Shown: piece after piece, positions 1,919 to 62,146 of the stretch
How positions within the stretch are numbered: the first letter of the stretch is position 1
Layout: every line of letters begins with the position of its first letter
Source of the DNA: an uncultured Candidatus Saccharibacteria bacterium
GTDB taxonomy: Bacteria > Patescibacteriota > JABMPQ01 > JAQVVF01
Length of the DNA: 64,000 nt
Assembly: GCA_964574655.1 (NCBI GenBank)
Contig: CAZNOH010000001.1
Coordinates: 471,020 to 535,019, forward strand
Reading direction: 5' to 3'
Position numbers and translations under genes: made by a program
The notes under the pieces: generated by a model
What the model was told of the DNA's origin: nothing
Databases searched by the model: none
The model's input: the letters and a program-made list of their open reading frames with translations, nothing else

Positions 1919-3157
1919 TTATTGAATGTCAGGAATAATACCACCAGCCACTGTATCATATTGATCAGCTAAAACAAATCTACCTGTTTCTTGAATTTTA
2001 GAAAAAACATCAATAGCAATCGGCTTTTCTAACTTAATTGTAACTTCTCCGACTTCAGTATTGTTGATTACTGGCGCATTTTCCTCCAATGTTTCTAAAG
2101 TTGATGAATTAACGCGTTTGTTTATGCAAGCAATTGTTCCCAATGCTTCTTGAGTGACTGATCTGAAAATTATTTTTTGGCCTTTCTTGTAGCCTTGTTT
2201 TGACATCCAAAAGACATTGGCTTTAAATTCTGAGGTTGTTTTTGCAGGATCTTCTTTTTTGCAAATTATCTCCCCTCTTTCAACAAAAGGATCATCTTTG
2301 ATTGTGATGCCAGTACTTTCTCCTGCAGAGGCTTCTTTCTTGTTTGGATTATTAAATTCCTCTACTGAAGTTATCACTGATTCATTGTTTGACGGCAACA
2401 TCAAAATTTTATCGCCAGTTTTCAAGGTTCCTGATTCTACTCTACCAGCTAAAACACGTTTGTCGCCAATTTTATAAACATCTTGCACTGGAAAACGAAG
2501 CGCTTGATTTGCTTTGTCGCTCAAAGGACTAAAAGTGTCCAAGGCTTGCAAGATGGTATGGCCGTTGTACCATTTCATATTCGTTGATGGTTTGGCTATG
2601 TTCTCGCCTTTGTTTGCAGATACTGGTATGATATACGTTGGTTTTAAATTTATTGAAGATAAGAATTTTTTTAATTCTTGAACGACTTCGTTAAATCTAT
2701 CAAGCTTGTAGTCTACTAAATCCATTTTGTTGACAGCAATAACGACTTGCTGAATGCCAAGCATGCTTAGAACATAAGCATGACGTTTTGTTTGCTCTTG
2801 AACGCCTTCGTTAGCATCAACAATTAAAATCGTTGCTTCAGCTTGTGAAGCGCCAGTAATCATGTTTTTTAAAAATTCTTTGTGACCTGGAGCGTCGATT
2901 ATTACATATTCTCTTTTTTCTGTTTTGAAAAAGATTTGGGTAGTGTCAATTGTGATTCCTTGCTCTCTTTCTTCTTGAAAATGGTCAGTAATAAAACCAA
3001 ATTCCATCTCTCGCCCAAGAGACTCACAGACTTGTTTTATTTCAGCAACTTTGTCTTCTGGTACACAGCCTGTATCATAAAGTAAGCGACCTATTAAAGT
3101 TGATTTGCCGTGATCGACGTGACCAGTTATTACTAATTTTAAGTATTGTTTTTCCAT
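1919..3157 (-). CDS. cysN: sulfate adenylyltransferase subunit 1 (GTPase CysN)
   Basis: [16 protein letters not shown]-loop, DAPGH, NKMD G-motifs, and an EF-Tu-like domain II/III tail. 412 aa, with no fused APS-kinase domain. Confidence 0.88.
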
Positions 3158-3197
3158 AGGTTTAATGTGGTTATTTGTTTAAAAACGTAAATTATAA

Positions 3198-3292
3198 TAC
3201 GAATCCGAGTACGAATAATGCGAATGTTGCGAATTACGAATACGACGATTTGCAATTCGTATCATTTGCATTATTCGTATTTCATTCGTATT
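3198..3292. repeat. array of about 5 direct TACGAAT/GCGAAT heptamers followed by about 3 inverted ATTCGTA copies (long imperfect dyad) in the cysD-cysN spacer
   Basis: Read directly: tacgaat..tacgaataatgcgaatgttgcgaattacgaatacgac..attcgtatc..attcgtattt..attcgtatt. The reverse complement of the region is nearly the region itself. Confidence 0.7.
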
Positions 3293-3297
3293 GTATT

Positions 3298-4101
3298 TTA
3301 CATATATCCCAACGCTCTTAGCTTATTCATAACATAAACACTTTCTTTATCTTGTGCTCTTCCTGATCGTTCTGAAATTTTGGTTGTTTCTAATTCTTGA
3401 ACAACTTCATGAACATTTGAAGCGCAAGAAGTTACCGGACTGCAACATGTTTCACAGCCAATTGATCTGAATCTTTTGCCATTTTTAGCAAAATATAAAT
3501 CAACGATTGGAATATTTTCTCTTTCGACGTAAGCCCAAATATCTTTTTCGGTCCAGTCAAGCAAGGGATGTACTCTGATGTGTTGTTCTGCAGCTTGTTT
3601 TTGTTTATATTGATCCCATAATTCAGCTGGCTGGTCTTTGTAATTCCACTGGAATTGTTGATTGCGTGGAGAAAAAACTCTTTCTTTTGCTCTAATTCCA
3701 TGCTCATCTCTTCTGATGCCTAAAAGCAAGGCTTTGAATTTGTATTTGGCGATTGCTTGTTTTAGAGCTTCAGTTTTTAATTGACCACAGCAATCTAGCT
3801 TGTCTTTTGTTTTTGGATTCATTCCGGCTTTTAAAGCAATTTCGTTTCTGGCAATAAGTAATTTTAGATTCCATTTTTTTGCATATTCATCGCGGAATTG
3901 ATAAATTTCTTTAAATTTAAAGCTTGTATCAATGTGCATTACAGGAAAAGGCAAATGACCATAGAATGCTTTTTGACAAAGCCATAATAATGTTGTTGAG
4001 TCTTTACCGATTGACCAAAGTTGAGCAATGTCATGGTATTGCTTGTAGGCCTCTCTGATGATAAAAATGCTTTTTGATTCAAGATAGTCTAAATGTGTCA
4101 T
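3298..4101 (-). CDS. cysD: sulfate adenylyltransferase subunit 2 (CysD, PAPS-reductase-like ATP pyrophosphatase fold)
   Basis: SIGKDSTTLLWL PP-loop motif, CysD-like length (267 aa), immediately upstream of cysN on the same strand. Confidence 0.88.
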   Translation of the reverse strand: MTHLDYLESKSIFIIREAYKQYHDIAQLWSIGKDSTTLLWLCQKAFYGHLPFPVMHIDTSFKFKEIYQFRDEYAKKWNLKLLIARNEIALKAGMNPKTKDKLDCCGQLKTEALKQAIAKYKFKALLLGIRRDEHGIRAKERVFSPRNQQFQWNYKDQPAELWDQYKQKQAAEQHIRVHPLLDWTEKDIWAYVERENIPIVDLYFAKNGKRFRSIGCETCCSPVTSCASNVHEVVQELETTKISERSGRAQDKESVYVMNKLRALGYM

Positions 4102-4224
4102 GAGTTTGTAAGGTTAAAAAGTTATAAAGTTTTTAAACTATTATATTAATAGTGATATATGGTGATAGCTAATTTAAGTATAATAGATAATTATAAAAAC
4201 TCAAATAATGTTGTTAATAACTTA

Positions 4225-4434
4225 TTATTTTATATAGCCCATTTCTCGTAATCTTTTCATTACTCTTTTTGTATCAGCTTCAAAATTACCTTCTCCACCT
4301 TTGACATATTCGCGAAGTAAATAAGCAGCAAAACTTGAAACAGATGGAAAACCTTTGTCATTGATATATTGCTCTGTTGCATCGTAGACTGTTTTTGGAA
4401 TAGAAATGGTTTTGAATTTTTTGTTTATTGCCAT
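4225..4434 (-). CDS. small ribbon-helix-helix-like protein; possible regulator upstream of cysDN
   Basis: 69 aa. N-terminal beta-strand-like TISIPKTVYDATEQYI followed by helical segments (RHH/CopG-like pattern). Sits at the head of the minus-strand cysD-cysN transcription unit. Confidence 0.35.
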   Translation of the reverse strand: MAINKKFKTISIPKTVYDATEQYINDKGFPSVSSFAAYLLREYVKGGEGNFEADTKRVMKRLREMGYIK

Positions 4435-4517
4435 ATGCTTGAAAGTGTTTTAAAATATATTTGATGATGTATTCGTATTGATATAAATGTTTTTTTGTTG
4501 TAAAATAAGATAAATAA

Positions 4518-4970
4518 TTGCTTATGAAAATAAAAACTTTGTTATATTCTATTTTAGTGTTTTTAGCGGTTTTGTCAATTGTTGCATTGATAATGTCTTT
4601 TTGGCTAGGAGTTGCAAGTTCTTTTCGGTTAGTATTCGGTATTCTCTATATTCTGTTTATTCCCGGACTTATTTGGAGTTATGTGTTTTTCTCAAGCGCT
4701 GATTCAACGCTGATTTCTAACGCTGATAATACGCTGATAAAAAATACTGATAATAAAAAAGTAGAAGGTATTGATTCGATTGAAAGAATAATATTGTCAG
4801 TTGCTTTGTCGTTAGCTTTAGTGCCATTGGTTATTTTCTTTATAAATAAGATTGGCGTAAAAATTAATTTGATAAGTGTTGTGCTTGAGGTACTCGGAAT
4901 TATTTTAATTGGCATGACGATTTTAGTTGTTAAATATTTTTTGGATAGGAAAGTAGTAAGTAGAAAGTAG
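4518..4970 (+). CDS. small polytopic membrane protein (hypothetical)
   Basis: 150 aa, 4 predicted hydrophobic helices, and an internal SADSTLISNADNTLIKNTDN mini-repeat encoded by tandem ACGCTGAT units. Confidence 0.5.
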   Translation: MLMKIKTLLYSILVFLAVLSIVALIMSFWLGVASSFRLVFGILYILFIPGLIWSYVFFSSADSTLISNADNTLIKNTDNKKVEGIDSIERIILSVALSLALVPLVIFFINKIGVKINLISVVLEVLGIILIGMTILVVKYFLDRKVVSRK

Positions 4971-5008
4971 AAAGTCTACTTACTGCTTGCTACGTTCTGC
5001 ATTCTACT

Positions 5009-6112
5009 ATGCCACATTATGATATTTTGGTTGTTGGCGCTGGTTTTGCGGGCGCTGTAATTGCTGAAAGATTGGCATCCCAATTAGACAAAAAGGTTTT
5101 AATCATTGATAAAAGAAATCATATTGGAGGCAATTGTTATGATTGCTATGATAAATCAGGTGTTTTGATTCATAAGTATGGGGCTCATTTATTTCATACT
5201 GACAAGAAAGAAGTTTTTGATTATCTATCAAAATTTGCAAAATGGCATAAATATGAGCATAGAGTTAAGGCTAATATCAAGGGTGAAATTTATGACATGC
5301 CTATTAACTTGAATACCATTAATAAGTTCTTTAAAAAAGATTTTACCCAAGTTCAATGCCAAAAATATTTAAATAAAATTAAAGTTAATATTAAAAATCC
5401 AAAGAATGCAGAAGAGCAAGTTGTTTCACAAGTAGGCTGGGATATTTATAATAAATTTTTTAAGAATTATACAATCAAGCAATGGGAACGACATCCAAGA
5501 AAGCTTGACGCTTTAATAACTGCAAGAGTGCCTATTAGATTAAATACTGATGATAGATATTTCGATGACCCATATCAATTCATGCCGAAACTAGGTTTTA
5601 CTGATCTTTTTGAAAAAATATTAAGTCATAAAAATATAGAAATTAAGTTAAAAACTGATTTTAAGGAAATAAAGGATGGCATTGATTGCAAATTTATAAT
5701 ATACACTGGATGCATTGATGATTTCTTTGATAAAAAGTTTGGCGGACTTCCCTATCGATCATTAAAGTTTAGATTTAAGAATTATAATCAACCCTTTTTT
5801 CAAGAGCATACTGTAATAAATTTTCCAAATGAACATAAATATACAAAAGCTGTTGAGATTAAACATGCAACTAAGCAAAGAATAAATAAGACAACTGTTG
5901 GTTATGAATACCCTGCATCAGCTGGTGAACAATATTATCCTGTTTTTGAGCCTAAGAATGAAAAATTATATAATAAATATTCAAGATTAGCTGCAAAATT
6001 AAAAAATGTTTATTTTATTGGAAGATTGGCTGAGTATAAATATTATGATATGGATGATGTCGTCTTTAGAGCCTTGACTCTTTATAAAGAGATTGAAGGT
6101 AAGAAAAAATAG
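5009..6112 (+). CDS. glf: UDP-galactopyranose mutase (copy 1)
   Basis: N-terminal FAD-binding VVGAGFAGAV. Signature NHIGGNCYD and KYGAHLFHT motifs, and YFIGRLAEYKYYDMD at the C-terminus. Confidence 0.9.
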   Translation: MPHYDILVVGAGFAGAVIAERLASQLDKKVLIIDKRNHIGGNCYDCYDKSGVLIHKYGAHLFHTDKKEVFDYLSKFAKWHKYEHRVKANIKGEIYDMPINLNTINKFFKKDFTQVQCQKYLNKIKVNIKNPKNAEEQVVSQVGWDIYNKFFKNYTIKQWERHPRKLDALITARVPIRLNTDDRYFDDPYQFMPKLGFTDLFEKILSHKNIEIKLKTDFKEIKDGIDCKFIIYTGCIDDFFDKKFGGLPYRSLKFRFKNYNQPFFQEHTVINFPNEHKYTKAVEIKHATKQRINKTTVGYEYPASAGEQYYPVFEPKNEKLYNKYSRLAAKLKNVYFIGRLAEYKYYDMDDVVFRALTLYKEIEGKKK

Positions 6113-6161
6113 AGTTATTGTTTTATTGTCAAATTGCTAAATTGTTAAGAATTAATAACGT

Positions 6162-6197
6162 TAAGCAATTTAACAATTTAACAATTTAACAATTTAA
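6162..6197. repeat. tandem octamer (CAATTTAA)x4 flanked by an inverted ttgctaaattgttaag / cttaacgttaagcaa pair immediately upstream of the gmd start
   Basis: Read directly: gcaatttaacaatttaacaatttaacaatttaagctATG. Confidence 0.7.
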
Positions 6198-7274
<1,077 letters not shown>

Positions 7275-7282
7275 TTTAGAAA

Positions 7283-7642
7283 TTGAAAATTTTAATATTA
7301 AATATTAAAATGAAAATTGTTTATTTTAAAGGTTATGAATCTAGCTGGTTTAAATATTCTTTTGATGAGCAAATGGGCAATATTGGTAGCGAGGTTTCTC
7401 GTATGAGCTCTGCTTTTAAAATAAAAGATAAGAAAAGAGCGTCGGATTGTTACAAATATGCTTCAGAGTTAATTTATTTAACCTCGATTGATCCGAGACG
7501 GAAAAATAAAACAAAAGAAATCAAGAGAGTTCGTGAAGATTTATTGGTTGCTTTTAATGATTATGATAAAAATAAGTGTTTGCTTGATAATCTAAACAAA
7601 TATCTTTATAACTTTGCTTATCGTTGTCGTGCTAATAGATAA
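7283..7642 (+). CDS. hypothetical protein wedged between gmd and the reductase gene
   Basis: 119-aa ORF with 8-9 nt gaps to both neighbours. No recognisable motif. The true start may be the internal MKIVYFKG. Confidence 0.4.
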   Translation: MKILILNIKMKIVYFKGYESSWFKYSFDEQMGNIGSEVSRMSSAFKIKDKKRASDCYKYASELIYLTSIDPRRKNKTKEIKRVREDLLVAFNDYDKNKCLLDNLNKYLYNFAYRCRANR

Positions 7643-13149: not shown

Positions 13150-14127
13150 AGCTTTTGGACTTGTTCTCAATTGATATGGCAACAGTCTATGCGGACTGTT
13201 TTTTAATAGTTCTTGATCAGAAATTTTCCGATTTTTGAATAATGATTGCTGTTTTTTGTAGTTTTTAAAAGCCTTAATCATTCCATATAAACCAGCTGGT
13301 GCGGAAAAATCTAAGACTAGCAAATCTAGAGGAAGAATCAACAATTTGTAAAATAGATATTTTGTAATTGATTTTGGCAATGTTTTTTTATCTAGATTCT
13401 TTAATAAAGTTTTTAGATAGTCCTTTTCAAAGATATATCTACGTCTATATAGTTCTTTGAAAGATATTTTTTTAGAATCTTTGGCAATTTTATAATGGTA
13501 GACTATAGATTTTGGTACATAGAAATTTTTATAACCACAGAGTCTAATTCGCCAGGATAAATCAACATCATCACAAAAGAACTTGTATTTTTCATCAAAT
13601 TGTCCAGCTTCATAAAATGCTTTTTTTGAAACTAGCCAAGAAGTAATACCAAAATGTACTTCTCGTGATTCATTATTATCATCTAAACAATTTGCAAATT
13701 GCGGAGAAAAAAAACCGTTTCTGTCTATTATTCCGCCTCTCACAAATGAAGATTTGGTGCCTGTATCAATAATCTGACTAGTGCAAAGTCCTGCATTTTG
13801 CTGTGAAGTAATTGTCGAGACTAATTCTAGAAGCCAATTTTTATCAACTTTTGTATCGTTATCCAAAAAAAGAAAATATTCACCTTGAGCATATTTTGCA
13901 CCCTTGTTAAGAGCTTTTGAATAACCGAGATTGGAATCGCAAACAACAAGCTTAACTTTTGAAAAATTTTTTGTTATAAATTCTACACTGTCATCTGTAG
14001 AATTATTATCTATTAAAATTACCTCAAAGTTCTGATAAACATTTTTGTATATCGATGGCAAGCATTTTTCTAAAAATTTTTCGCCATTAAAATTCGGAAT
14101 TAAAATTGATACTTTAGGATATTGCAT
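13126..14127 (-). CDS. glycosyltransferase family 2
   Basis: VSILIPNFNGEKFLEKCLPSIYKNVYQNFEVILIDNNSTDDS. The DxD region follows. Confidence 0.8.
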   Translation of the reverse strand: MQYPKVSILIPNFNGEKFLEKCLPSIYKNVYQNFEVILIDNNSTDDSVEFITKNFSKVKLVVCDSNLGYSKALNKGAKYAQGEYFLFLDNDTKVDKNWLLELVSTITSQQNAGLCTSQIIDTGTKSSFVRGGIIDRNGFFSPQFANCLDDNNESREVHFGITSWLVSKKAFYEAGQFDEKYKFFCDDVDLSWRIRLCGYKNFYVPKSIVYHYKIAKDSKKISFKELYRRRYIFEKDYLKTLLKNLDKKTLPKSITKYLFYKLLILPLDLLVLDFSAPAGLYGMIKAFKNYKKQQSLFKNRKISDQELLKNSPHRLLPYQLRTSPKALRNPFKR

Positions 14128-15319
14128 TTTTGTAAATGTTTTCTAAGGCTAAAAGATGTTTTTCAATTGTATAATTATTGATCAAATCTTGATATGCATT
14201 ATTCGTCAGTTTTTGTCTTAATTCTTTATCTTTTATCAACAATTCAATCTTTTCTTTCAAATCATTACTATTGCCTACTTTGAAATATAAACCATTTTGA
14301 TTGTTTTTTATTAACTCCTTCATTCCTCCTATTTCGCTAACTATCAAGGCTGTTTTATTCTTAAATCCTTCATAAATTGTAACTGGTGAATTTTCATACC
14401 AAATTGATGGCACAATAGCTATATCTGCTTTTTGCCATAATTCTTGTTTTTCTTTTCCAGAAATGAAACCATAAAATTTAATTTTCTTATCGTAGCTGAA
14501 ATTGTGTTGCAATTTTTTAAATAGAGGACCATCTCCTGCAATATGCAAAATGACATTTTTATTTTTTAGCTTTGTAAATGCTTCAAGTAAAATATTAATG
14601 CCCTTATGTGTCACTAACTGTCCGAAATAGACAATATTAATATAATTATCCTGAATTTTTTCAGCTAAGTCTAGATTAATGCCAAGTGGCAAGCAAATAT
14701 TTTTTGATTTTTTGAAAAAACCAAGCTGGGTGTGTTTATCGAGAGTGAATTGTGAAGGCGCTAGCACAATTTTTGCAGATTGCGAAAATTTTCTTTTAGA
14801 TTTATAAAAAAAAATTTCGAGCGAATTAAATTTTGAAATTATTTTGTTGTTTCTAAAAAGCATTGCCCATGGACTTAAGAATTGATAGTCGTGTAAAGTA
14901 TGTACTTGTGGAATATTTTGACTTTTTATCGCTGAAAAAATTGATGTAGAAAATCCTGTAACATTATGAGTATGGACTAAATCTGGTTTTTCTTTTTTCA
15001 GAATTTCTTTTATCTGTAAATATGAATGAATATTCCACAAATCAAAAAAATGCCATAAAGGCTTTAAATAAATAGGCTTTTTGTCGGCATCTTTGGAATG
15101 ATAAATATTCAGTGGATAAAAACGGTATATTTTGAGTTTATTATTTATAATTTCTGATTTAGCTTTGAGATCGCTAATGTTTTTAAATGGTTTTGTGGTA
15201 ATCAGAATGACCTGATTGTCAGTTTGCTTTGTTATATATTCAACAATTTTTTCAACATAAATTTCAGCGCCACCTAGCACATATGGTTCATAAAGATTGG
15301 AAATGATAGCAATTTTCAT
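14114..15319 (-). CDS. glycosyltransferase family 4
   Basis: N-terminal MKIAIISNLYEPYVLGGAEIYV and C-terminal GT-B domain. Confidence 0.8.
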   Translation of the reverse strand: MKIAIISNLYEPYVLGGAEIYVEKIVEYITKQTDNQVILITTKPFKNISDLKAKSEIINNKLKIYRFYPLNIYHSKDADKKPIYLKPLWHFFDLWNIHSYLQIKEILKKEKPDLVHTHNVTGFSTSIFSAIKSQNIPQVHTLHDYQFLSPWAMLFRNNKIISKFNSLEIFFYKSKRKFSQSAKIVLAPSQFTLDKHTQLGFFKKSKNICLPLGINLDLAEKIQDNYINIVYFGQLVTHKGINILLEAFTKLKNKNVILHIAGDGPLFKKLQHNFSYDKKIKFYGFISGKEKQELWQKADIAIVPSIWYENSPVTIYEGFKNKTALIVSEIGGMKELIKNNQNGLYFKVGNSNDLKEKIELLIKDKELRQKLTNNAYQDLINNYTIEKHLLALENIYKNAIS

Positions 15320-48562: not shown

Positions 48563-50761
48563 ATGCAATCACAAATTGCTTTTTTGTTGCTTATTTTGTT
48601 GTTAGGATGTTCGAATAGCGATACCTCTTCATTTTCTGAAAAAGCAAAAGAATTATGCAGAGAAGAACATTGTGTAGCTGAAATTGCTGAATTTGAAAAT
48701 GATTTTTTACTTTCCCCTGCTAACATTGATTTGAAAGCTGAAGATTCTGATGGCAATATTGCTTCAACAAATACTTTGCTGGTTAAATTCAAGAGCAATA
48801 CTAGTGTCTCTGAAATTAAGAAAGCTCTTGATGAAATTGATGGCAAGGTCTCAGCATTTATTCCGGAAGTAAATATCTTTGAATTGAGATTTGACTGTGA
48901 TTCTATTGATCAGATTGAAAGAAATATTCAAACATTGCTTTCAAGCGGAATTGTTGAATTGGCGGAAATGAATTATGTAGCTCAACTGGAAGATTTGGAT
49001 ATTGGAAGCAATAATGATGATGGTTTGTGGGGATTTAAAAAAATCAGACTTGCAGAAGCTTACAATTTTATTGAACAAAATAGTATTGTTTTGCAACCGA
49101 TTAAGATCGCTGTTATTGATAGTGGTGTTAGATTAACGCATAGCGACTTAAAAGGGGTCTCTGTTGAAGAGTACGATTTGTTTGATAATGACAATGATGT
49201 TACTACTTTGGATGGACACGGTACAGCAGTTGCAGGCATAATTTTTGCTCAAAATCATAATGGCGATTTGAATGGCATTGCTTTTAACGCGACTTTGATG
49301 GCATACAAAATCACAAATAATTCTGGTAGCAATGAATATTTTGATCGAGATTCAATTGTTGCAATAATACACGCAGTACAACACAATGCTTCTGTCATTA
49401 ATATTAGTTCAAGAACTTCATCAGATAGTGAAACAGTTGAAGCACTCTATAGTGCAATTAGATTTGCATATGAAAATGGAGTGACTATTGTTGCTTCTGC
49501 GGGAAATGGTGAAGACGAATTGCTGTGTCGTGTTAATCAAAATCTTGATATCTGCTTTATTGGCGATGATGCAACCAACCATTATCCTTCAGCATTCTCT
49601 GAAGTTATCTCGGTTGGTGCTACCTATATTGATGAATTTGGACTTGAAAATAGAGCTCCTTGGTCTAATTACTCCCAAGATGATGATATAAATATTTTAG
49701 CTCTCTCTGCTCCGGCAAATAATATTACTGTCTTAACCTTAACAGATTTTGATCATAATAAAGGCACTTCTTTTGCTTCACCAATGGTTGCTGGTCTTGC
49801 TGGTTTATTAATATCTATTAGGCCAGAATTACGTCCTGATGAAGTTAGAAAAATTATGTATGAATCTGCTGTTGAAATTCTAGTTACCTATCCAGATGGC
49901 GTTTTTCATAACTGGAGAAGAATTAATGTATTGGAAGCTGTGAAGAAAGCAACTCATGAAATGGATCTGCCAAATCATGGAATTGGAAAAGATTGCTTTG
50001 AACTTAGTGATTGTAATTTTGGTTTGTATTGTGTCTCTGGAATTTGTACGGAATTTTGTTTTGAAGAGAAAAGTCGCGGCTTGGATTCAGGATTCAGTTG
50101 CGATAATTGCAATATGTTCAATGAATGTCCAAACGGAACTGCCTGTATTAAAATAAGAGATCCTCATGGTCCTTCGATCGGCAGAATACCGCTGAAATTG
50201 TGTTTTATATCATGCAAGAACGACAATGATTGCTACGATGGGCATATTTGTTGGCTAAATATCAATAGTTCAGGTGGTTTTTGTGTGCCAAAGCATTATG
50301 AAGATCTTTATAATGATGGAAGTACAGAAGGTGGAATTTGTGGCGATATCTTTGATGGTTATCTCCCAATAGGCTGTAAAGAAGGTGTTTGTAGTTTGCA
50401 TCTTGATATGATAAAGATCGGCTATTGCCGACGAGATTGTACTCCAAATGTTTCTGGTCATTCTTCATGTTATGAAAATGAATTCTGTGAATCAAATAAA
50501 TATTTTGATTATAATGGGATAAGAAAATGCGGTTTTTGCCAAGCAAGAAATTCTTTTCTACAAGTCAACGAAAATTGCATTTCTTCTACTGATTGTCCTC
50601 TCGGTACTACGTGCGTAACTTTATCTGATAGAAATGATTTTCGCTGTAAGATTCCTTGCGATTTTAATAACCCAAGCTGTCCTGAAGGATATTGGTGCAG
50701 CGAATATCTTTCAGACAGTAATGTCTGCCATGAATTAGGACTGGGTGCTTGTTCATTGTAA
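48563..50761 (+). CDS. subtilisin-like serine protease (peptidase S8) lipoprotein with about 270-aa Cys-rich C-terminal domain
   Basis: Signal/lipobox LLLGCSN. Catalytic triad contexts IAVIDSGV (Asp), DGHGTAVAG (His), GTSFASPMVAGLAG (Ser). About 30 Cys in the last 270 aa. SD CAAGGAGGACAGAGATG. Confidence 0.85.
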   Translation: MQSQIAFLLLILLLGCSNSDTSSFSEKAKELCREEHCVAEIAEFENDFLLSPANIDLKAEDSDGNIASTNTLLVKFKSNTSVSEIKKALDEIDGKVSAFIPEVNIFELRFDCDSIDQIERNIQTLLSSGIVELAEMNYVAQLEDLDIGSNNDDGLWGFKKIRLAEAYNFIEQNSIVLQPIKIAVIDSGVRLTHSDLKGVSVEEYDLFDNDNDVTTLDGHGTAVAGIIFAQNHNGDLNGIAFNATLMAYKITNNSGSNEYFDRDSIVAIIHAVQHNASVINISSRTSSDSETVEALYSAIRFAYENGVTIVASAGNGEDELLCRVNQNLDICFIGDDATNHYPSAFSEVISVGATYIDEFGLENRAPWSNYSQDDDINILALSAPANNITVLTLTDFDHNKGTSFASPMVAGLAGLLISIRPELRPDEVRKIMYESAVEILVTYPDGVFHNWRRINVLEAVKKATHEMDLPNHGIGKDCFELSDCNFGLYCVSGICTEFCFEEKSRGLDSGFSCDNCNMFNECPNGTACIKIRDPHGPSIGRIPLKLCFISCKNDNDCYDGHICWLNINSSGGFCVPKHYEDLYNDGSTEGGICGDIFDGYLPIGCKEGVCSLHLDMIKIGYCRRDCTPNVSGHSSCYENEFCESNKYFDYNGIRKCGFCQARNSFLQVNENCISSTDCPLGTTCVTLSDRNDFRCKIPCDFNNPSCPEGYWCSEYLSDSNVCHELGLGACSL

Positions 50762-50787
50762 CCGAGAATTTTCTCGGTTTTTTATTT
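50762..50787 (+). terminator. Rho-independent terminator
   Basis: ccgagaa-tttt-ctcgg followed by tttttt, directly after the protease stop. Confidence 0.7.
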
Positions 50788-57836: not shown

Positions 57837-60686
57837 CTAGCGTCTCATGATTTCAAAGTAGTGCTGGATTTCAGCGTCGGAAAGTGCCTTGTTGAAGAAG
57901 GAAAATTCGTCGATGGTCATATCGCTTTTTTGACCACCAACGTTCTGTGCACCTAAAAGCATTGCATTTCCAATAATATTTACATACGGGCCATTCCAAA
58001 TGGGCACGCCATCATTATAGACTGTGAAATTTCCGTTTTGATATTTTGCGGCAAACGCGTACAGTTGATTAGCGTTAACGTTTACCATTTGTGCAAATCG
58101 TTCCTGTGACAAATAAAATGTCCACTTAAATCCGTCATCTGTCGAAAGTATCCCGAGTCCAGGCATTCTGTTACGTGAGAAAATCATGTCTCCTGTTTCA
58201 TACGTTCGTACTTTAACAGACACGAAGTATGTGAACTCATTCGCAATGCTGTCCATACTCACACTATCAGCCACCTCGGCGTAGTCGTCAACTCCGTCGA
58301 ACGATGCAGCCTGGCCACAAACTGCATCCGCAGTGAAAGTGGCGCCGTGGTTGACAGCATTGTTGGCATTTGGCGAACCATCATTGAAGTGGTTGTCAAA
58401 CGACAGGTACATGACCAACGACCGGCAGTCTTCATCAACAGCGCCATCGCAGTCATTGTCAACCTGATCGCAGATTTCCACTCCGCAGTTGGTAACCGTA
58501 CATTCACAGCCATCAGTAGGATTAGCATTCACATCGAAGCGGAAGCGGTTGCACTGCAACACGCACTGTCCTGCTACACAACGCGAGCTAGAAGTCCCCT
58601 GATTTCCGCAAACGCGATTGCATTGGCCACAGTTCAATGGATCAACCAAGAGGTCGAAGCCATTGTCTGCAGTACCATCACAATCGTTGTCCAGGCCATC
58701 ACAGATTTCAGCAACTGATGTGATCTGATTCTGGCATTCTCCCCACTCACGGCTCTCCCAGCAGATCTGCGTTCCGATCTGGCATTCGCCGACATCGGTA
58801 CCGCAGTTGCGAGAAACACCTGGTGAGCAACAGCCAATCAGATTTTCGTCAGTTTCAGAATTGCAATTGTTATCCAGACCATCGCAGATTTCATCAGACG
58901 GTCCAGTTGCACCTTCGCACCAGCCCCAAGAGCGGTTGGCCTGGCAAGTGGAAGTTCCCTTCTCACATTCGCCAGTGTCAATTCCGCAATAGGAAAGATC
59001 ACGAGGTTCGCAACAACCTTCCAAATCTTCATCAGTCGAATCGTCGCAATCGTTGTCCAAGCCATCGCAGATTTCATCTGTCGACGGATTGGCAATTGCG
59101 TTGCAACTACTGGTCTGGTCATTAACACATGCAATCACGCCTTCGGCATAACATTCGCCAACGCCGTTAGAGCAAAAATTGCGAGTGTTAAAACCTTCAT
59201 CAGTGTTGTGATCGCAATTGTTATCAAGGCTATCGCAGATTTCGTTGCTCGACTGAACCTCGCCTTCACAGGCAAGCCAGACGCCAGCGAAACAAGACTG
59301 CACGCCCTTCTGACACTCACCGACATCATTGCCACATTCCTGCGTCAATGCTTCGTCGGTTGCGCCATCGCAATCATTGTCCTTGTTGTCGCAAAGCTCG
59401 TCGTGAGACAGGCCAGCAACAGCATTGCAGAACGTTGACTGCTGATCAATGCCACATACCAACTGACCAAGCGACAAGCACGCGCCTACGCCGATCTGGC
59501 ACTCTGCGCCAAGATTGACATAAGCTTCATCAGTGTTGCCGTCGCAGTTGTTATCTTTGGCATCGCATAGTTCAGCCGTGGGCTTCACTTCGTCAGTGCA
59601 TTCACTCCACACACCATCTTGCGAGCAAGTCTTGCGACCCTTTTGGCATTCGCCAACATTGGAGCCACATACGACCTGATCATTTGCATTGCAACATCCA
59701 ACCAAATCCTCATCAGTTGCGCCATCGCAGTCATTGTCCTGCTGGTCGCAAGCTTCTTCGGTTGGCTGAATGGTCTGTGCATTGCAAGTTGCTGAAAGCT
59801 TGTCATCACTGCAAACATAAACACCGCGCGAAATACAGAGACCTTGACCGATCTGGCAGGCACTTTCAAGGTTTACGAAATCCTCGTCAGTGTTACCGTC
59901 ACAGTCATTGTCCAACAAGTCGCAAAGATCTGCAGATGGGTCAACAGCATTTTCACACTGGCCCCAACTACCGTCTTCTTGACAAGTCATTTGACCCTTC
60001 TGGCATTCCCCGACATCATTGCCACATTCCTGAACATCGTTTTGATCGCAACAGCCAACCAATTCTTCATCGATTGTGCCATCGCAATCGTTATCCAGTT
60101 CATCACACTCTTCAGGAATTGCCTGACCAGCGACTGCATTGCAAGTCGTAGTGTTGCCGTCAGCGCTACAAACGTAGACGCCTTCTGCAAAACATTCGCC
60201 CTTGCCAACATTGCAGACCTGATTTAGGTTGTCGAAACCTTCATCAGTCTGATTGTCGCAGTCGTTGTCCTTGCCATCGCAGATTTCAGTGGACGGAATA
60301 CAAGGAATGTCAGCACCTGTATCAGGAGTCGTGTCTGGCTCACTGTCAGGCGAAACATCTTTGCCACCACCTGAGTCTACATCTGGAGTTCCAACTTCAG
60401 CATCAGCTTCGGGGCCAACTTCAGCGTCTGCTTCAGCATCAGGCCCTGCATCAAAGCAATTGGTGCATACGGCCTTGCAAACTGTGTCCTTGTCGGCGTG
60501 AAGCATTTCATCGTTGAGTTCGTTGCTTTCAACACAGATCTTTTTCTCATTCAAGCAAACACAAGTGAACTTTTCAGTACAAAGCGCATTTTCATCACAG
60601 AGATTCTTTTTGTCCATGTCGTCAAAACTCTGCAAACATCCAGAAATTGCCAACGCAAAAAACATAGCCAGCGTTCTCGTTGTCAT
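57837..60686 (-). CDS. lipoprotein with about 12 MopE-like 'CDGxDNDCDGxTDE' Cys-rich repeats and a C-terminal LamG/concanavalin-A-like domain
   Basis: Lipobox ALAISGC. Alternating repeat types (…DNDCDGxTDEgF.NL…C..G.G.C…G..VC and …DNDCDGxxDE.L.GCC…CG..VGECQKG..TC). C-terminal FDGVDDYAEV…KWTFY…NGNFTVYNDG matches the Laminin_G_3 pattern. GC about 50-53% against about 28% for the glycan locus. SD GAGGAGGAAGGAAAATG. Confidence 0.85.
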   Translation of the reverse strand: MTTRTLAMFFALAISGCLQSFDDMDKKNLCDENALCTEKFTCVCLNEKKICVESNELNDEMLHADKDTVCKAVCTNCFDAGPDAEADAEVGPEADAEVGTPDVDSGGGKDVSPDSEPDTTPDTGADIPCIPSTEICDGKDNDCDNQTDEGFDNLNQVCNVGKGECFAEGVYVCSADGNTTTCNAVAGQAIPEECDELDNDCDGTIDEELVGCCDQNDVQECGNDVGECQKGQMTCQEDGSWGQCENAVDPSADLCDLLDNDCDGNTDEDFVNLESACQIGQGLCISRGVYVCSDDKLSATCNAQTIQPTEEACDQQDNDCDGATDEDLVGCCNANDQVVCGSNVGECQKGRKTCSQDGVWSECTDEVKPTAELCDAKDNNCDGNTDEAYVNLGAECQIGVGACLSLGQLVCGIDQQSTFCNAVAGLSHDELCDNKDNDCDGATDEALTQECGNDVGECQKGVQSCFAGVWLACEGEVQSSNEICDSLDNNCDHNTDEGFNTRNFCSNGVGECYAEGVIACVNDQTSSCNAIANPSTDEICDGLDNDCDDSTDEDLEGCCEPRDLSYCGIDTGECEKGTSTCQANRSWGWCEGATGPSDEICDGLDNNCNSETDENLIGCCSPGVSRNCGTDVGECQIGTQICWESREWGECQNQITSVAEICDGLDNDCDGTADNGFDLLVDPLNCGQCNRVCGNQGTSSSRCVAGQCVLQCNRFRFDVNANPTDGCECTVTNCGVEICDQVDNDCDGAVDEDCRSLVMYLSFDNHFNDGSPNANNAVNHGATFTADAVCGQAASFDGVDDYAEVADSVSMDSIANEFTYFVSVKVRTYETGDMIFSRNRMPGLGILSTDDGFKWTFYLSQERFAQMVNVNANQLYAFAAKYQNGNFTVYNDGVPIWNGPYVNIIGNAMLLGAQNVGGQKSDMTIDEFSFFNKALSDAEIQHYFEIMRR

Positions 60687-60795
60687 TTTCCTTCCTCCTC
60701 TTGATGTAAGGTTCGGTCTGTTCAGCCGAATCCTTGGGTTTTCAGTTCAAATTATAGTAGCATATACATAAAATTTTGGCAAGAGAAAATTGTTT

Positions 60796-60824
60796 ATTAT
60801 GGCTTTTTTGACTATTTTTGTCAA
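60796..60824 (-). promoter_or_regulatory. candidate promoter (minus strand -35 TTGACA, 17-nt spacer, -10 CATAAT)
   Basis: Minus-strand reading ttgacaaaaatagtcaaaaaagccataat. Confidence 0.45.
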
Positions 60825-60833
60825 TTTTTTGCA

Positions 60834-60856
60834 TAAAAAAAAGACTCTAAGAGTCT
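60834..60856 (-). terminator. Rho-independent terminator for the minus-strand C-type lectin gene
   Basis: Minus-strand agactc-tta-gagtct followed by tttttttt. Confidence 0.65.
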
Positions 60857-60862
60857 AAATGA

Positions 60863-62146
60863 TTAAAAAAGTTCGTTCCATTCACAGAAAAAAGGACGAG
60901 TCAAGCCGCAGAAAGCATCATTCCAACCGCCATTTGGTGGCAAGTCAATGCGAATTTCTACGCAATCTTCACCGCTTGCGCCAATAGCTTGAGAGTTATT
61001 TGGTTCTCCAGAAGCCCATTCAAGGACATCTGAAATTTCGCCAGATTCCCAGACCCAGGTATTTTCTTGCGCAATATCGTTTAAACCGATCCAGGCGGAA
61101 AAATAGCCTAATTGCAAGGTGTAAAAATATCCGTCTTCAAGCAAATCATTTATTGTAGCAAGATGACTGTTAAATCTTCGGCAATATTGAACTGCTTCAA
61201 TCCAAACAAGCTCTTGGTTGCAATAAGCATAAGTATGATTTTGATATTCCATAATTTGGCAATTCATATCTAAGCATTGGCCTTCTAGACAGATGCCTTG
61301 AGGCTGGCAGGGATTATTTTCATCTGTCTCCCCATCGCAATCATTATCTAGTCCATCGCAAATTTCATCAGTTTTCAGCCATAATTTTTCTTCTGCATCA
61401 CAATTTGAAAGCAAATCACCATCGCAAGCAATCTGGCCTAGAGCTCTACAAACTCCATTTCCAATTTCACAATATTCGCCAATTAGAAAACCGTCATCAA
61501 TTTCTTCATCGCAGTCATTATCTAAGCCATCACAAATATCATGTTCTGGATTCTTGCTATTACATTCTGACCATGTGCCAAAGGCTAAACATGTTTGTCT
61601 GCCAAGTCTGCATTCACCAATATTGCTGTTTCCGCAAATTCTCGTCTCGGTTACTATGCAACAATCTTCAAGATTTTCATCAGTCTCGCCATCACAATCG
61701 TTGTCTAGGCTATCACAGACTTCATCTGTTTTTAGCCAAGACCTTTCTTCAGCATTACAAAACGAATATTCATGAGTCTCACAGAAAAAATGGCCAGTTC
61801 CCGTACAAACTCCTTTTCCATTTTCACAATGTTCGCCTACTTTGAAATTTTCATCAATCTCGCCATCACAATCGTTGTCTTGATTATCACAAATTTCTTT
61901 GACACATTCTATGTTGTTTTCTGTATCTGGTTCATCAGTTTTTTCATCGTTATCGTCCTGATTTCTTGAATCTTCTCGGATTAATACCTCTGGTTGAATT
62001 AATTTTTCACAAATTCCAGAAATACAATAATAGCCATCAACGCAGTCAAAAATTTCAGAGCATTGATTTTTTGCTTCTAATCCTGTTGAATCAAAACTGC
62101 ATCCGCATGCCAAAATCGCTAGACAAAGACATGTTGCTCGTTGCAT
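60863..62146 (-). CDS. lipoprotein with 4 MopE-like Cys-rich repeats and a C-terminal canonical C-type lectin carbohydrate-recognition domain
   Basis: Signal peptide MQRATCLCLAILACGCS. Repeats CDNQDNDCDGEIDE, CDSLDNDCDGETDE, CDGLDNDCDEEIDD, CDGLDNDCDGETDE. CTLD hallmarks YCRRFNSHLATI, WIGLND, WVWESGE, WASGEPNN, EDCVEI, GGWNDAFC, FFCE. Confidence 0.85.
   Translation of the reverse strand: MQRATCLCLAILACGCSFDSTGLEAKNQCSEIFDCVDGYYCISGICEKLIQPEVLIREDSRNQDDNDEKTDEPDTENNIECVKEICDNQDNDCDGEIDENFKVGEHCENGKGVCTGTGHFFCETHEYSFCNAEERSWLKTDEVCDSLDNDCDGETDENLEDCCIVTETRICGNSNIGECRLGRQTCLAFGTWSECNSKNPEHDICDGLDNDCDEEIDDGFLIGEYCEIGNGVCRALGQIACDGDLLSNCDAEEKLWLKTDEICDGLDNDCDGETDENNPCQPQGICLEGQCLDMNCQIMEYQNHTYAYCNQELVWIEAVQYCRRFNSHLATINDLLEDGYFYTLQLGYFSAWIGLNDIAQENTWVWESGEISDVLEWASGEPNNSQAIGASGEDCVEIRIDLPPNGGWNDAFCGLTRPFFCEWNELF

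Follow-up and report, generated by a model that had tools for sequence, protein, structure and literature searches.

The cysD-cysN spacer and its hairpin

The window analysed here is a 64-kb stretch of DNA from a Candidatus Saccharibacteria (Patescibacteria) contig, CAZNOH010000001.1, with a G+C content of approximately 30%. The subject of this study is the spacer between two of its genes, cysD and cysN, and the long hairpin of 7-nt units (heptamers) that fills most of it. Both genes are located on the minus strand. The cysD gene (3298-4101) encodes a short-type CysD protein of 267 aa (NCBIfam NF003587, E = 9e-104), and the cysN gene (1919-3157) matches NCBIfam TIGR02034 with a score above the cutoff. 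The two genes are separated by 140 nt (3158-3297), which confirms the distance given in an earlier note on this DNA that was made from the sequence alone.

Folds and inverted-repeat analysis identified a 115-nt imperfect palindrome at 3187-3301, which forms a single hairpin on either strand and is referred to here as a heptamer foldback. Read on the plus strand, the left arm (3198-3241) contains five direct units, TACGAAT at 3198, 3210 and 3235 and TGCGAAT at 3219 and 3228, and the right arm (3248-3290) contains five inverted units, ATTTGCA at 3248 and 3264 and ATTCGTA at 3255, 3273 and 3284. The earlier note had recognized the palindrome and its five direct units correctly; its count of about three inverted units is revised to five, giving a 5+5 arrangement. 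The apex ACGACGAT (3242-3249, plus strand), an 8-mer that is unique in the window, includes the loop ACGACG (3242-3247). Units are separated by gaps of 0-5 nt, and their start-to-start spacing is mirrored between the arms (12/9/9/7 nt on the left and 7/9/9/11 nt on the right). The arms are 84-89% complementary over 32+18 nt and are terminal inverted repeats of the kind that defines miniature inverted-repeat transposable elements (MITEs). Exact TACGAAT sites occur 13 times in the window, compared with 7.6 expected, and six of them fall in one 93-nt stretch of the spacer. No further TACGAAT array was found elsewhere in the 64 kb.

The plus strand folds into one unbranched hairpin of 50 pairs (3187-3301; -56.1 kcal/mol, z = -11.7), and DNA folding parameters predict the identical hairpin. 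In a 120-nt sliding fold, the segment 3181-3300 is the most stable of the entire window. Folding of the minus strand, which is the mRNA sense and had been proposed as a check in the earlier note, also gave a stable structure, with 45 pairs and -40.6 kcal/mol (z = -6.8). Of the long, branched mRNA hairpin envisaged there, the great length and stability stand, and the branches give way to one continuous stem. The mRNA-strand fold is 15 kcal/mol weaker than that of the antisense strand and has 5 fewer pairs. The plus-strand fold contains six G:U pairs, four of which correspond to unpaired A.C in the mRNA-strand fold, while the latter keeps two G:U pairs. The ATTTGCA units pair through G:U on the plus strand and leave A.C mismatches in the mRNA.

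In the mRNA, the stem opens with the final cysD codon and the stop codon (AUGUAA), the latter being part of the stem base. Directly 3' of the stem, a terminator-like UUUUU run was read from the sequence (3181-3185, minus strand). This U run follows the stem on the sense strand only, and none is present on the other strand. An unpaired A/U-rich leader of approximately 23 nt (3158-3180, minus strand), containing no Shine-Dalgarno-like motif, extends from the hairpin to the cysN AUG.

Both arms are reproduced base for base in two short-read contigs from two SRA runs (L001 and L195), each ending at the apex. The presence of exact arms in two independent contigs argues against an assembly artefact and indicates that the palindrome is real. 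The short-read assemblies break exactly at the hairpin apex, where L001 ends and L195 starts (window 3239-3251). CysN homologues were also found on 1.3-kb contigs (P0003 and P0004), which are gene-sized pieces between hairpins. Hairpin elements of this type fragment metagenome assemblies of candidate phyla radiation (CPR) bacteria.

Hairpins at this and neighbouring junctions in related genomes

A total of 43 loci with both genes were retrieved by protein-guided searches of reference genomes and metagenomes, and the closest of these is from a Patescibacteria metagenome-assembled genome (MAG). The spacer measures -5 to +18 nt in 12 of the 21 relatives with CysD identity ≥60%, which bears out the statement of the earlier note that cysD and cysN are normally tightly spaced; in most relatives at 60-72% CysD identity it is ≤18 nt. 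Long spacers were found in the genomes closest to the window. L002 (CysD 92% identity) has a 100-nt spacer with a hairpin of GTCAAAA/TTTTGAC units, in which the array runs on past the paired region. The L167 locus, which equals L191 (92%), has a 140-nt spacer with a hairpin of CAAGATA units. L003 (82%) has a spacer of approximately 96 nt with a plain 14-bp hairpin, and remnant ATTTGCA and ATTCGTA units lie 3' of that hairpin. Conservation of the element itself between cysD and cysN, suggested in the earlier note as a test, was not found in these relatives, as L002, L167/L191 and L003 each carry a different hairpin. The long cysD-cysN spacer is a clade-specific state whose sequence is not conserved.

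Within the 12.8 kb of L002, the 8-mer ACGACGAT has a single occurrence, which forms the apex of the hairpin at the same junction and is on the opposite strand relative to the genes. The sharing of an apex that is unique in both sequences, despite unrelated arms, indicates that a hairpin at the cysD-cysN junction is ancestral. Its arms were replaced among these genomes, with the apex kept and flipped.

Two more distant relatives also carry stems at this junction. In L010, a Planctomycetes-labelled MAG (CysD 67%), the 64-nt spacer is an ORF-less hairpin with TTCGTAT/CTCGTAG/TTCGTAG and TACGGAA/TACGAGA units. In L007, from Omnitrophota (CysD 70%), the 477-nt spacer consists of a PF05635 gene (E = 5e-30) flanked by GTTCGTN x4 and NNCGAAC x5 arrays.

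Three additional foldbacks of 7-8-nt units lie within 5 kb of the cysD-cysN hairpin. The second foldback (1798-1905), named family A, occupies the spacer between cysN and the next gene and has CAAGAAA/CAAGATA units and the apex TCGTCGACGA. The third (4948-4998), with GAAAGTA/GTAAGTA units, lies at the DUF1616-glf junction. The fourth (6117-6193), with 8-nt AATTGTTA/TTAACAAT units, lies in the glf-gmd spacer. Spacers in the remaining 58 kb of the window are compact, and no such hairpin was found there. Gene order is collinear among the window, L002 and L003. The latter two lack the second, third and fourth foldbacks; the genes on either side of these junctions overlap there or are 4-5 nt or 20 nt apart, indicating that these three hairpins are lineage-specific gains. 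In both L002 and L003, which lack family A, 20 nt separate cysN from the gene that follows it, and the glf-gmd junction is 4-5 nt in L002, L003 and L191.

The family A hairpin of the window shares 78% identity over its full length with the cysD-cysN hairpin of L167/L191. One element family therefore occupies non-equivalent spacers in sister genomes. Family A apices contain CGACGA. The window copy shows 76% complementarity and is decaying. In L191, the spacer after cysN contains a different hairpin with 7-nt TAGAATC units, and an additional hairpin is present at 14123-14210. The DUF1616-glf hairpin is orthologous in L191, with 83% identity. Hairpins at corresponding junctions were identified in independent MAGs and metagenome contigs (L191, L192, L193 and L194). 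All hairpins were judged from folds and alignments, as an automatic array detector was noisy at period 6, missed spaced units and returned 3-6 matches on shuffled sequence.

Eight hairpins were compared for strand preference, and the sense-strand folding bias is inconsistent among them. The G:U asymmetry, considered as a sign of the functional RNA strand, was therefore rejected; it favours the antisense strand in the window and is inconsistent over the eight hairpins. The strand asymmetry fits a DNA-level palindrome that gathers transitions better than it fits a sense-tuned RNA stem.

Several other features were observed at the locus. The short-type CysD (267 aa) is 61-72% identical across L002-L015, which include Patescibacteria, Omnitrophota, DPANN- or Methanosarcinales-labelled archaea, Dependentiae and Planctomycetes-labelled MAGs. 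This distribution suggests that the cysDN cassette moves horizontally within polysaccharide gene clusters. A 119-aa ORF (7283-7642, plus strand) between gmd and a downstream epimerase gene has no match in Pfam or NCBIfam and does not hit PF05635 at an E-value as permissive as 10; in L002 this junction measures 20 nt. Direct repeats ACGCTGAT/ATCAGCGT with an 11-nt period lie within the DUF1616 ORF (4688-4738), and the same repeats are present in promoter-like spacers of L191 (18031-18067, 18590-18714 and 20851-20927). They look like a separate putative protein-binding array with one-helical-turn spacing. A segment of approximately 49% G+C (57837-60686 and 60863-62146, both minus strand) in this 30% G+C genome encodes a protein of 949 aa that combines four metal-binding motifs of MopE type with a LamG domain, and an adjoining protein with C-type lectin and MopE domains. 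Its composition suggests that this segment (57837-62146 region) is of foreign origin.

Heptamer arrays in PF05635 cassettes and viral contigs

PF05635 genes encode four-helix-bundle proteins ('IVS protein', Avd-like) known from the intervening sequences (IVS) of 23S rRNA genes. In the IVS of Coxiella burnetii, tandem GACAGAT heptamers, whose number varies among strains, lie in the stem region on the 5' side, upstream of the S23p (PF05635) ORF, and the 28-bp terminal stem is cleaved by RNase III inside the stem in vitro, with ends mapped by rapid amplification of cDNA ends (PMC4990558). All 12 independent PF05635 cassettes retrieved here have inverted flanking arrays of 7-8-nt units. Eleven of the 12 were located without regard to repeats, and L224-L235 were sampled by protein homology only. 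No PF05635 gene in the sample, which spans at least seven phyla, lacks inverted arms of this type. In print, heptamer-unit inverted arms around PF05635 genes were found only for the Coxiella IVS, and the AATTCGT/ACGAATT array strings had no match in the literature searched.

The unit AATTCG[TC]/[AG]CGAATT, which is the window heptamer or a one-base variant of it, occurs in 5 of the 12 cassettes. In L208, which is 100% identical to a Nostoc linckia protein, a PF05635 gene lies exactly between (AATTCGT)4 and (ACGAATT)4. The Nostoc punctiforme plasmid L225 has AATTCGC/GCGAATT x4, L226-L228 have AATTCGT/ACGAATT, and L229 from Oscillatoria has AATTTGT/AATTCGT and ACGAATT. Other units were found in L224 (G[GT]ANAAT), in L230-L232 from Ca. 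Scalindua (GGTGCTT/AAGCACC), in L234 from Verrucomicrobia (GTTCTTG/CAAGAAC, near the window family A unit) and in L235 from Coatesbacteria (GGCAGTT x12 and CTGCCAA). PF05635 cassettes often lie outside rRNA (L007, L208, L227-L229, L234 and L235). In L233 from Acetothermia, the cassette (260-960) lies between tRNA-Ile and tRNA-Ala, so that the PF05635 gene and its inverted arms are in the rRNA operon spacer and outside the 23S gene. Upstream of the PF05635 gene in L234, a complete ORF-less hairpin, (GTTCTTG)4-loop-(GAACAAA)3, is present at 260-400, followed by a GAACTNG run up to the start codon. The unit of this hairpin is one base from the window family A unit CAAGAAA. In L227 and L228, the (AATTCGT)n/(ACGAATT)n cassette (620-1100) has an ORF matching RecD2-type helicase domains on either side, and it appears to have split a RecD2-type helicase gene. 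A hidden Markov model (HMM) built from >150 PF05635 proteins found no PF05635 gene in the window, L002, L003, L191, L192, L010, L049 or L198, and neither tblastn nor the HMM detected one near the CPR hairpins.

The same heptamer was also identified in viral sequences. At least 120 viral loci match a TACGAAT-type array pattern. Strict period-7 (TTACGAA)n arrays were found at no fewer than 27 viral loci among the matches listed, on contigs ranging from 29% to 66% G+C, and they often lie immediately upstream of a start codon. Such arrays cannot be ordinary coding repeats. Exact four-copy arrays of TTACGAA occur at 23 viral loci, compared with 11 for TTAGCAA and 0 for TATCGAA, two control units of the same composition. 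Heptamer arrays in general are real features, and TTACGAA is among the common units.

The arm order of the window (TTACGAA array, loop, TTCGTAA array) is found in eight hairpins on five viral contigs of 55-59% G+C, which share a conserved right arm (…TTCGTAATTCGTAATTCAAAATTCGTAATT…). The heptamer and the architecture of the window hairpin are common to these viral hairpins and the PF05635 cassettes. In the viral contig L198 (55% G+C), at least three AT-rich TTACGAA/TTCGTAA hairpins and solo arrays lie within 3 kb (3640-6420). Several of them lie within ORFs and are read as ITNYELR and IRNS peptide repeats; at some points TAA has become TCA. Hairpins of the opposite arm order were found in four spacers of a cyanobacterial-type contig (L049/L241) that is rich in the HIP1 motif GCGATCGC.

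Interpretation and comparison with known systems

The spacer was compared with several known classes of element. The earlier note had considered an attenuator, a processing site or a riboswitch-like element. A processing or termination site is plausible by analogy (stem starting at the cysD stop codon, UUUUU run; PMC4990558). A riboswitch or cys-specific attenuator was rejected, as the element has no Rfam match and is not conserved, the closest relatives carry unrelated hairpins and the same architecture occurs in neighbouring spacers. The Rfam search gave 0 matches at gathering thresholds in the whole window and, at permissive E-values in 3100-3400, only generic miRNA-precursor models with 15-28 bits against gathering thresholds of 72-211. 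A canonical intrinsic terminator has a short, G+C-rich stem of approximately 5-14 bp and a 3-8-nt loop; the present stem has 45-50 pairs, two thirds of them A-U. It does carry the U run of a terminator (UUUUU at 3181-3185, minus strand), but U runs are not consistently present at the other foldbacks, and a consensus terminator scan made no call at any foldback. An integron attC site was rejected: neither border has GTTRRRY, and L002 and L003 keep the gene order in the absence of three of the four hairpins. Nor is the element a strict tandem heptamer array (≥3 head-to-tail copies at period 7), given its spacing of 12, 9, 9 and 7 nt. It is not a PF05635 cassette proper, having no ORF between the arms and a 6-nt loop, and it is not an rRNA insertion, as it lies between cysD and cysN and no rRNA is present in the window.

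We consider it somewhat better than an even chance that the spacer element is an ORF-less, IVS-like or MITE-like heptamer foldback and not a cys-specific sensor or operator. With a similarly slight leaning in favour, it would join a class of heptamer-array hairpins with fast turnover in the intra-operon spacers of this Patescibacteria lineage. Membership in one family with the PF05635 cassettes is suggested by the common unit and design rather than by demonstrated homology. More generally, this looks like a widespread and barely described class of hairpin-forming repeats. No evidence was found that the element senses sulfur status, and the annotation of the cysD-cysN spacer as a sulfur riboswitch or cys operator is removed.

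The foldback may have arisen by insertion of an element or through spread by templating. Units would afterwards be gained and lost by replication slippage, and the arms would be corrected by arm-to-arm template switching. Such a course of events would account for the mirrored spacing, for the complete exchange of the arms with the apex kept and for the flip of the loop. In the cysDN mRNA, a predicted duplex of 45-50 bp would extend from the cysD stop codon to the U5 run. RNase III needs roughly 20 bp of duplex, far less than this length, in line with the IVS experiments (PMC4990558). By analogy with IVS stems, the predicted duplex would probably be cut by RNase III between the cistrons, and the stem with its U5 run may terminate some of the transcripts. 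Translational coupling between cysD and cysN would be lost, and cysN would start from its own unpaired A/U-rich leader. Through such cleavage and/or termination, cysD and cysN are predicted to be uncoupled and probably processed apart.

Several observations weigh against the foldback interpretation. Only a single TACGAAT-type copy is present within 64 kb, no target-site duplication was found at the element borders, where the flanks are AT-rich and no empty site could be aligned, and neither a transposase gene nor a PF05635 gene was detected in the window or at the sister loci; mobility of the cysD-cysN element itself is thus putative. Family A likewise shows no evident flanking direct repeat at its two sites, which also have AT-rich flanks. 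The AATTCGT-type PF05635 cassettes have the opposite arm order, with the AATTCGT array first, so the window element cannot have come from such a cassette simply by loss of the ORF. The window units, with their 0-5-nt gaps, are not strictly tandem, and TRF reported no period-7 array in 3190-3245. The occurrence of a hairpin at the cysD-cysN junction in all four close genomes could mean selection of the stem, and the ATTTGCA/ATTCGTA remnants in L003 and the TTCGTA-like units in L010 and L007 fit long persistence as well as repeated invasion. No rnc (RNase III) signature motif was found within the window.

Selection of the stem itself offers an alternative that we regard as unlikely, though by no means negligible. 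The element would then be an intercistronic stem-loop, needed by this clade, that stabilizes the 3' end of the cysD mRNA, serves as a processing site or, as a leaky terminator, sets the CysD:CysN ratio, with only the structure selected while slippage churns the sequence and gives rise to the 7-nt periodicity. Each of the four close genomes (window, L191, L002 and L003) carries a hairpin between cysD and cysN, compared with 1-2 of 4 at other junctions; the window and L002 keep the apex despite unrelated arms; it is only on the sense strand that the stem runs from the cysD stop codon into U5; and L010 and L007 have stems at the same junction. However, the fold of the mRNA strand is weaker by 15 kcal/mol than that of the antisense strand, the eight hairpins compared lack a consistent sense-strand bias, and spacers of ≤18 nt suffice for most relatives at 60-72% CysD identity. 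The same architecture also occurs in functionally unrelated spacers and in phage ORFs, the family A copy of the window is decaying at 76% complementarity, and canonical short GC-rich terminators are present elsewhere in the window (e.g., approximately 50761-50785). Selection on the stem can coexist with the foldback interpretation through exaptation. Less probable is a purely local by-product, that is, a slippage array made palindromic by template-switch fold-back, with neither mobility nor function and with only a coincidental likeness of its unit to the heptamers of phages and cyanobacteria. Such an origin would be in keeping with one copy per 64 kb, with the extension of the L002 array past the paired region and with the mirrored unit spacing, which fits a single inverted duplication. 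Heptamers have, moreover, been reported to be the commonest long simple-sequence repeats in prokaryotes and are ascribed to slippage (Mrazek 2007, as cited in PMC4679880). Local slippage cannot, however, make the AT-rich, multi-copy hairpins of the same unit and arm order in viral contigs of 55-59% GC, and it does not account for family A at two different junctions, for the recurrence of TTCGTA-type units at the cysD-cysN junction in four lineages or for the clustering of four foldbacks within 5 kb with none in the other 58 kb.

The earlier note had also proposed an operator array for the 69-aa ribbon-helix-helix (RHH)-like protein encoded immediately upstream of cysD (4225-4434, minus strand). 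As a DNA operator or roadblock for this or another regulator, the ten evenly oriented short sites would recall MetJ or Fur boxes. The RHH-like ORF is kept in L002 (91%) and L003 (76%) and weakly in four other loci (L162, L159, L009 and L160), and one CAATACGAAT (4468-4477) lies approximately 40 nt upstream of its start codon. The proposal did not survive comparison with the relatives, and we regard it as very unlikely: the orthologous promoter site of L002 is CAATATAAAT, which is unlike the L002 hairpin unit and does not co-vary with it; L191 has heptamer hairpins and lacks the RHH ORF; the array is inside the operon and not at a promoter; and neighbouring spacers carry arrays of four other units. 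The ORF itself matches no Pfam or NCBIfam family and is RHH-like by sequence pattern only. An assembly artefact, in the form of a chimeric fold-back join, is hardly credible. Mis-assembly can make palindromes, and the 11 apex bases 3240-3250 are present only in the window assembly, but both arms are exact in the two independent Logan contigs from two runs, and homologous or analogous hairpins occupy the same junctions in L191, L192, L193 and L194.

Beyond the foldback interpretation of this one spacer, a broader and doubtful proposal may be put forward, namely that heptamer-array foldbacks are one cross-phylum mobile class. The PF05635 cassette would be its gene-carrying form, with a protein that recognizes, maintains or spreads the arms, and the ORF-less hairpins found in operons of Patescibacteria, in phage genomes and in rRNA helices would derive from it as non-autonomous elements. 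If true, this would give the 30-year-old IVS puzzle a testable mobile-element model and would explain part of the heptamer-repeat excess in prokaryotes. The regularity of the PF05635 arms links three matters, the rRNA intervening sequences, the 'four helix bundle' genes without known function and the excess of heptamer repeats in bacteria. The hairpin alone is of modest interest; its weight comes from the heptamer arrays of PF05635 cassettes and from the heptamer common to CPR, viral and cyanobacterial sequences. The window further indicates that the ultra-compact genomes of Patescibacteria tolerate fast-turnover hairpin repeats inside operons.

Among known systems, ORF-less IVS of approximately 100 nt exist in Salmonella. 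The rRNA IVS and PF05635 ORFs of Coxiella, Leptospira and Salmonella (PMC4990558) resemble the window element in having a long inverted-repeat stem within a transcribed region and heptamers in the arms. The window element differs from them in its location in an mRNA spacer, its lack of an ORF, its 6-nt loop and its opposite arm order, and its cutting by RNase III is predicted only. MITE-type hairpins, such as the Neisseria Correia elements (also Neisseria miniature insertion sequences, NEMIS), the enterobacterial repetitive intergenic consensus (ERIC; also intergenic repeat units, IRU) and the Rickettsia palindromic elements (RPE), are palindromes of approximately 100-150 bp that occupy intergenic spacers, including those within operons, and fold in mRNA. 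Correia hairpins are RNase III substrates. RPE can sit in frame within ORFs, as do the TTACGAA hairpins of L198. The Correia, ERIC and RPE families have inverted repeats of unique sequence, target-site duplications and tens to hundreds of near-identical copies, whereas the arms of the window element are arrays of a 7-nt unit and no target-site duplication is visible.

Repetitive extragenic palindromic (REP) elements and bacterial interspersed mosaic elements (BIME) in E. coli operon spacers form stem-loops that stabilize upstream mRNA and lower downstream expression. REPs are 20-40 nt long, GC-rich, recognized by REP-associated tyrosine transposases (RAYT) and very numerous. None of these features of size, G+C content, RAYT association and abundance is found in the window element, and a REP assignment was rejected. 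By analogy, a REP-like effect on the mRNA of the cysD/cysN operon is nevertheless likely.

In cyanobacteria, the short tandemly repeated repetitive (STRR) sequences are heptamer tandem repeats, and Drosophila foldback elements have inverted arms of short tandem sub-repeats that sometimes enclose a gene. TAACTGA repeats have been described from Beggiatoaceae, Cyanobacteria and Bacteroidetes, with one inverted case among 170 sets (PMC4679880). Bacterial heptamer repeats, including STRR, the TAACTGA repeats (PMC4679880) and the long simple-sequence repeats of Mrazek (2007) as far as they are cited there, share with the window element a 7-nt unit, placement between genes, in many cases shortly before a start codon, and occurrence inside operons. 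They also share a patchy cross-phylum spread that suggests horizontal transfer, and have no known function (PMC4679880). Bacterial heptamer repeats are, however, direct head-to-tail arrays thought to be single-stranded protein-binding sites, whereas the window element combines direct and inverted arrays that pair as a duplex. The repetitive hairpin elements (RHE) of sponge mitochondria (PMC2800124) and the palindromic repeats of Volvox (PMC2670323) are likewise hairpins, of a selfish kind, that invade the few non-coding spacers of compact genomes. These organellar repeats and the Drosophila elements differ from the window element in having eukaryotic or organellar hosts and unrelated sequences, and a common mechanism is without evidence. 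By mode of action, the window element is closest to ORF-less rRNA IVS and to transcribed MITE-type hairpins such as Correia; by unit structure, it is closest to heptamer repeats and foldback elements. Its novelty is that of an IVS- or MITE-like hairpin with heptamer-array arms in an mRNA spacer of Patescibacteria.

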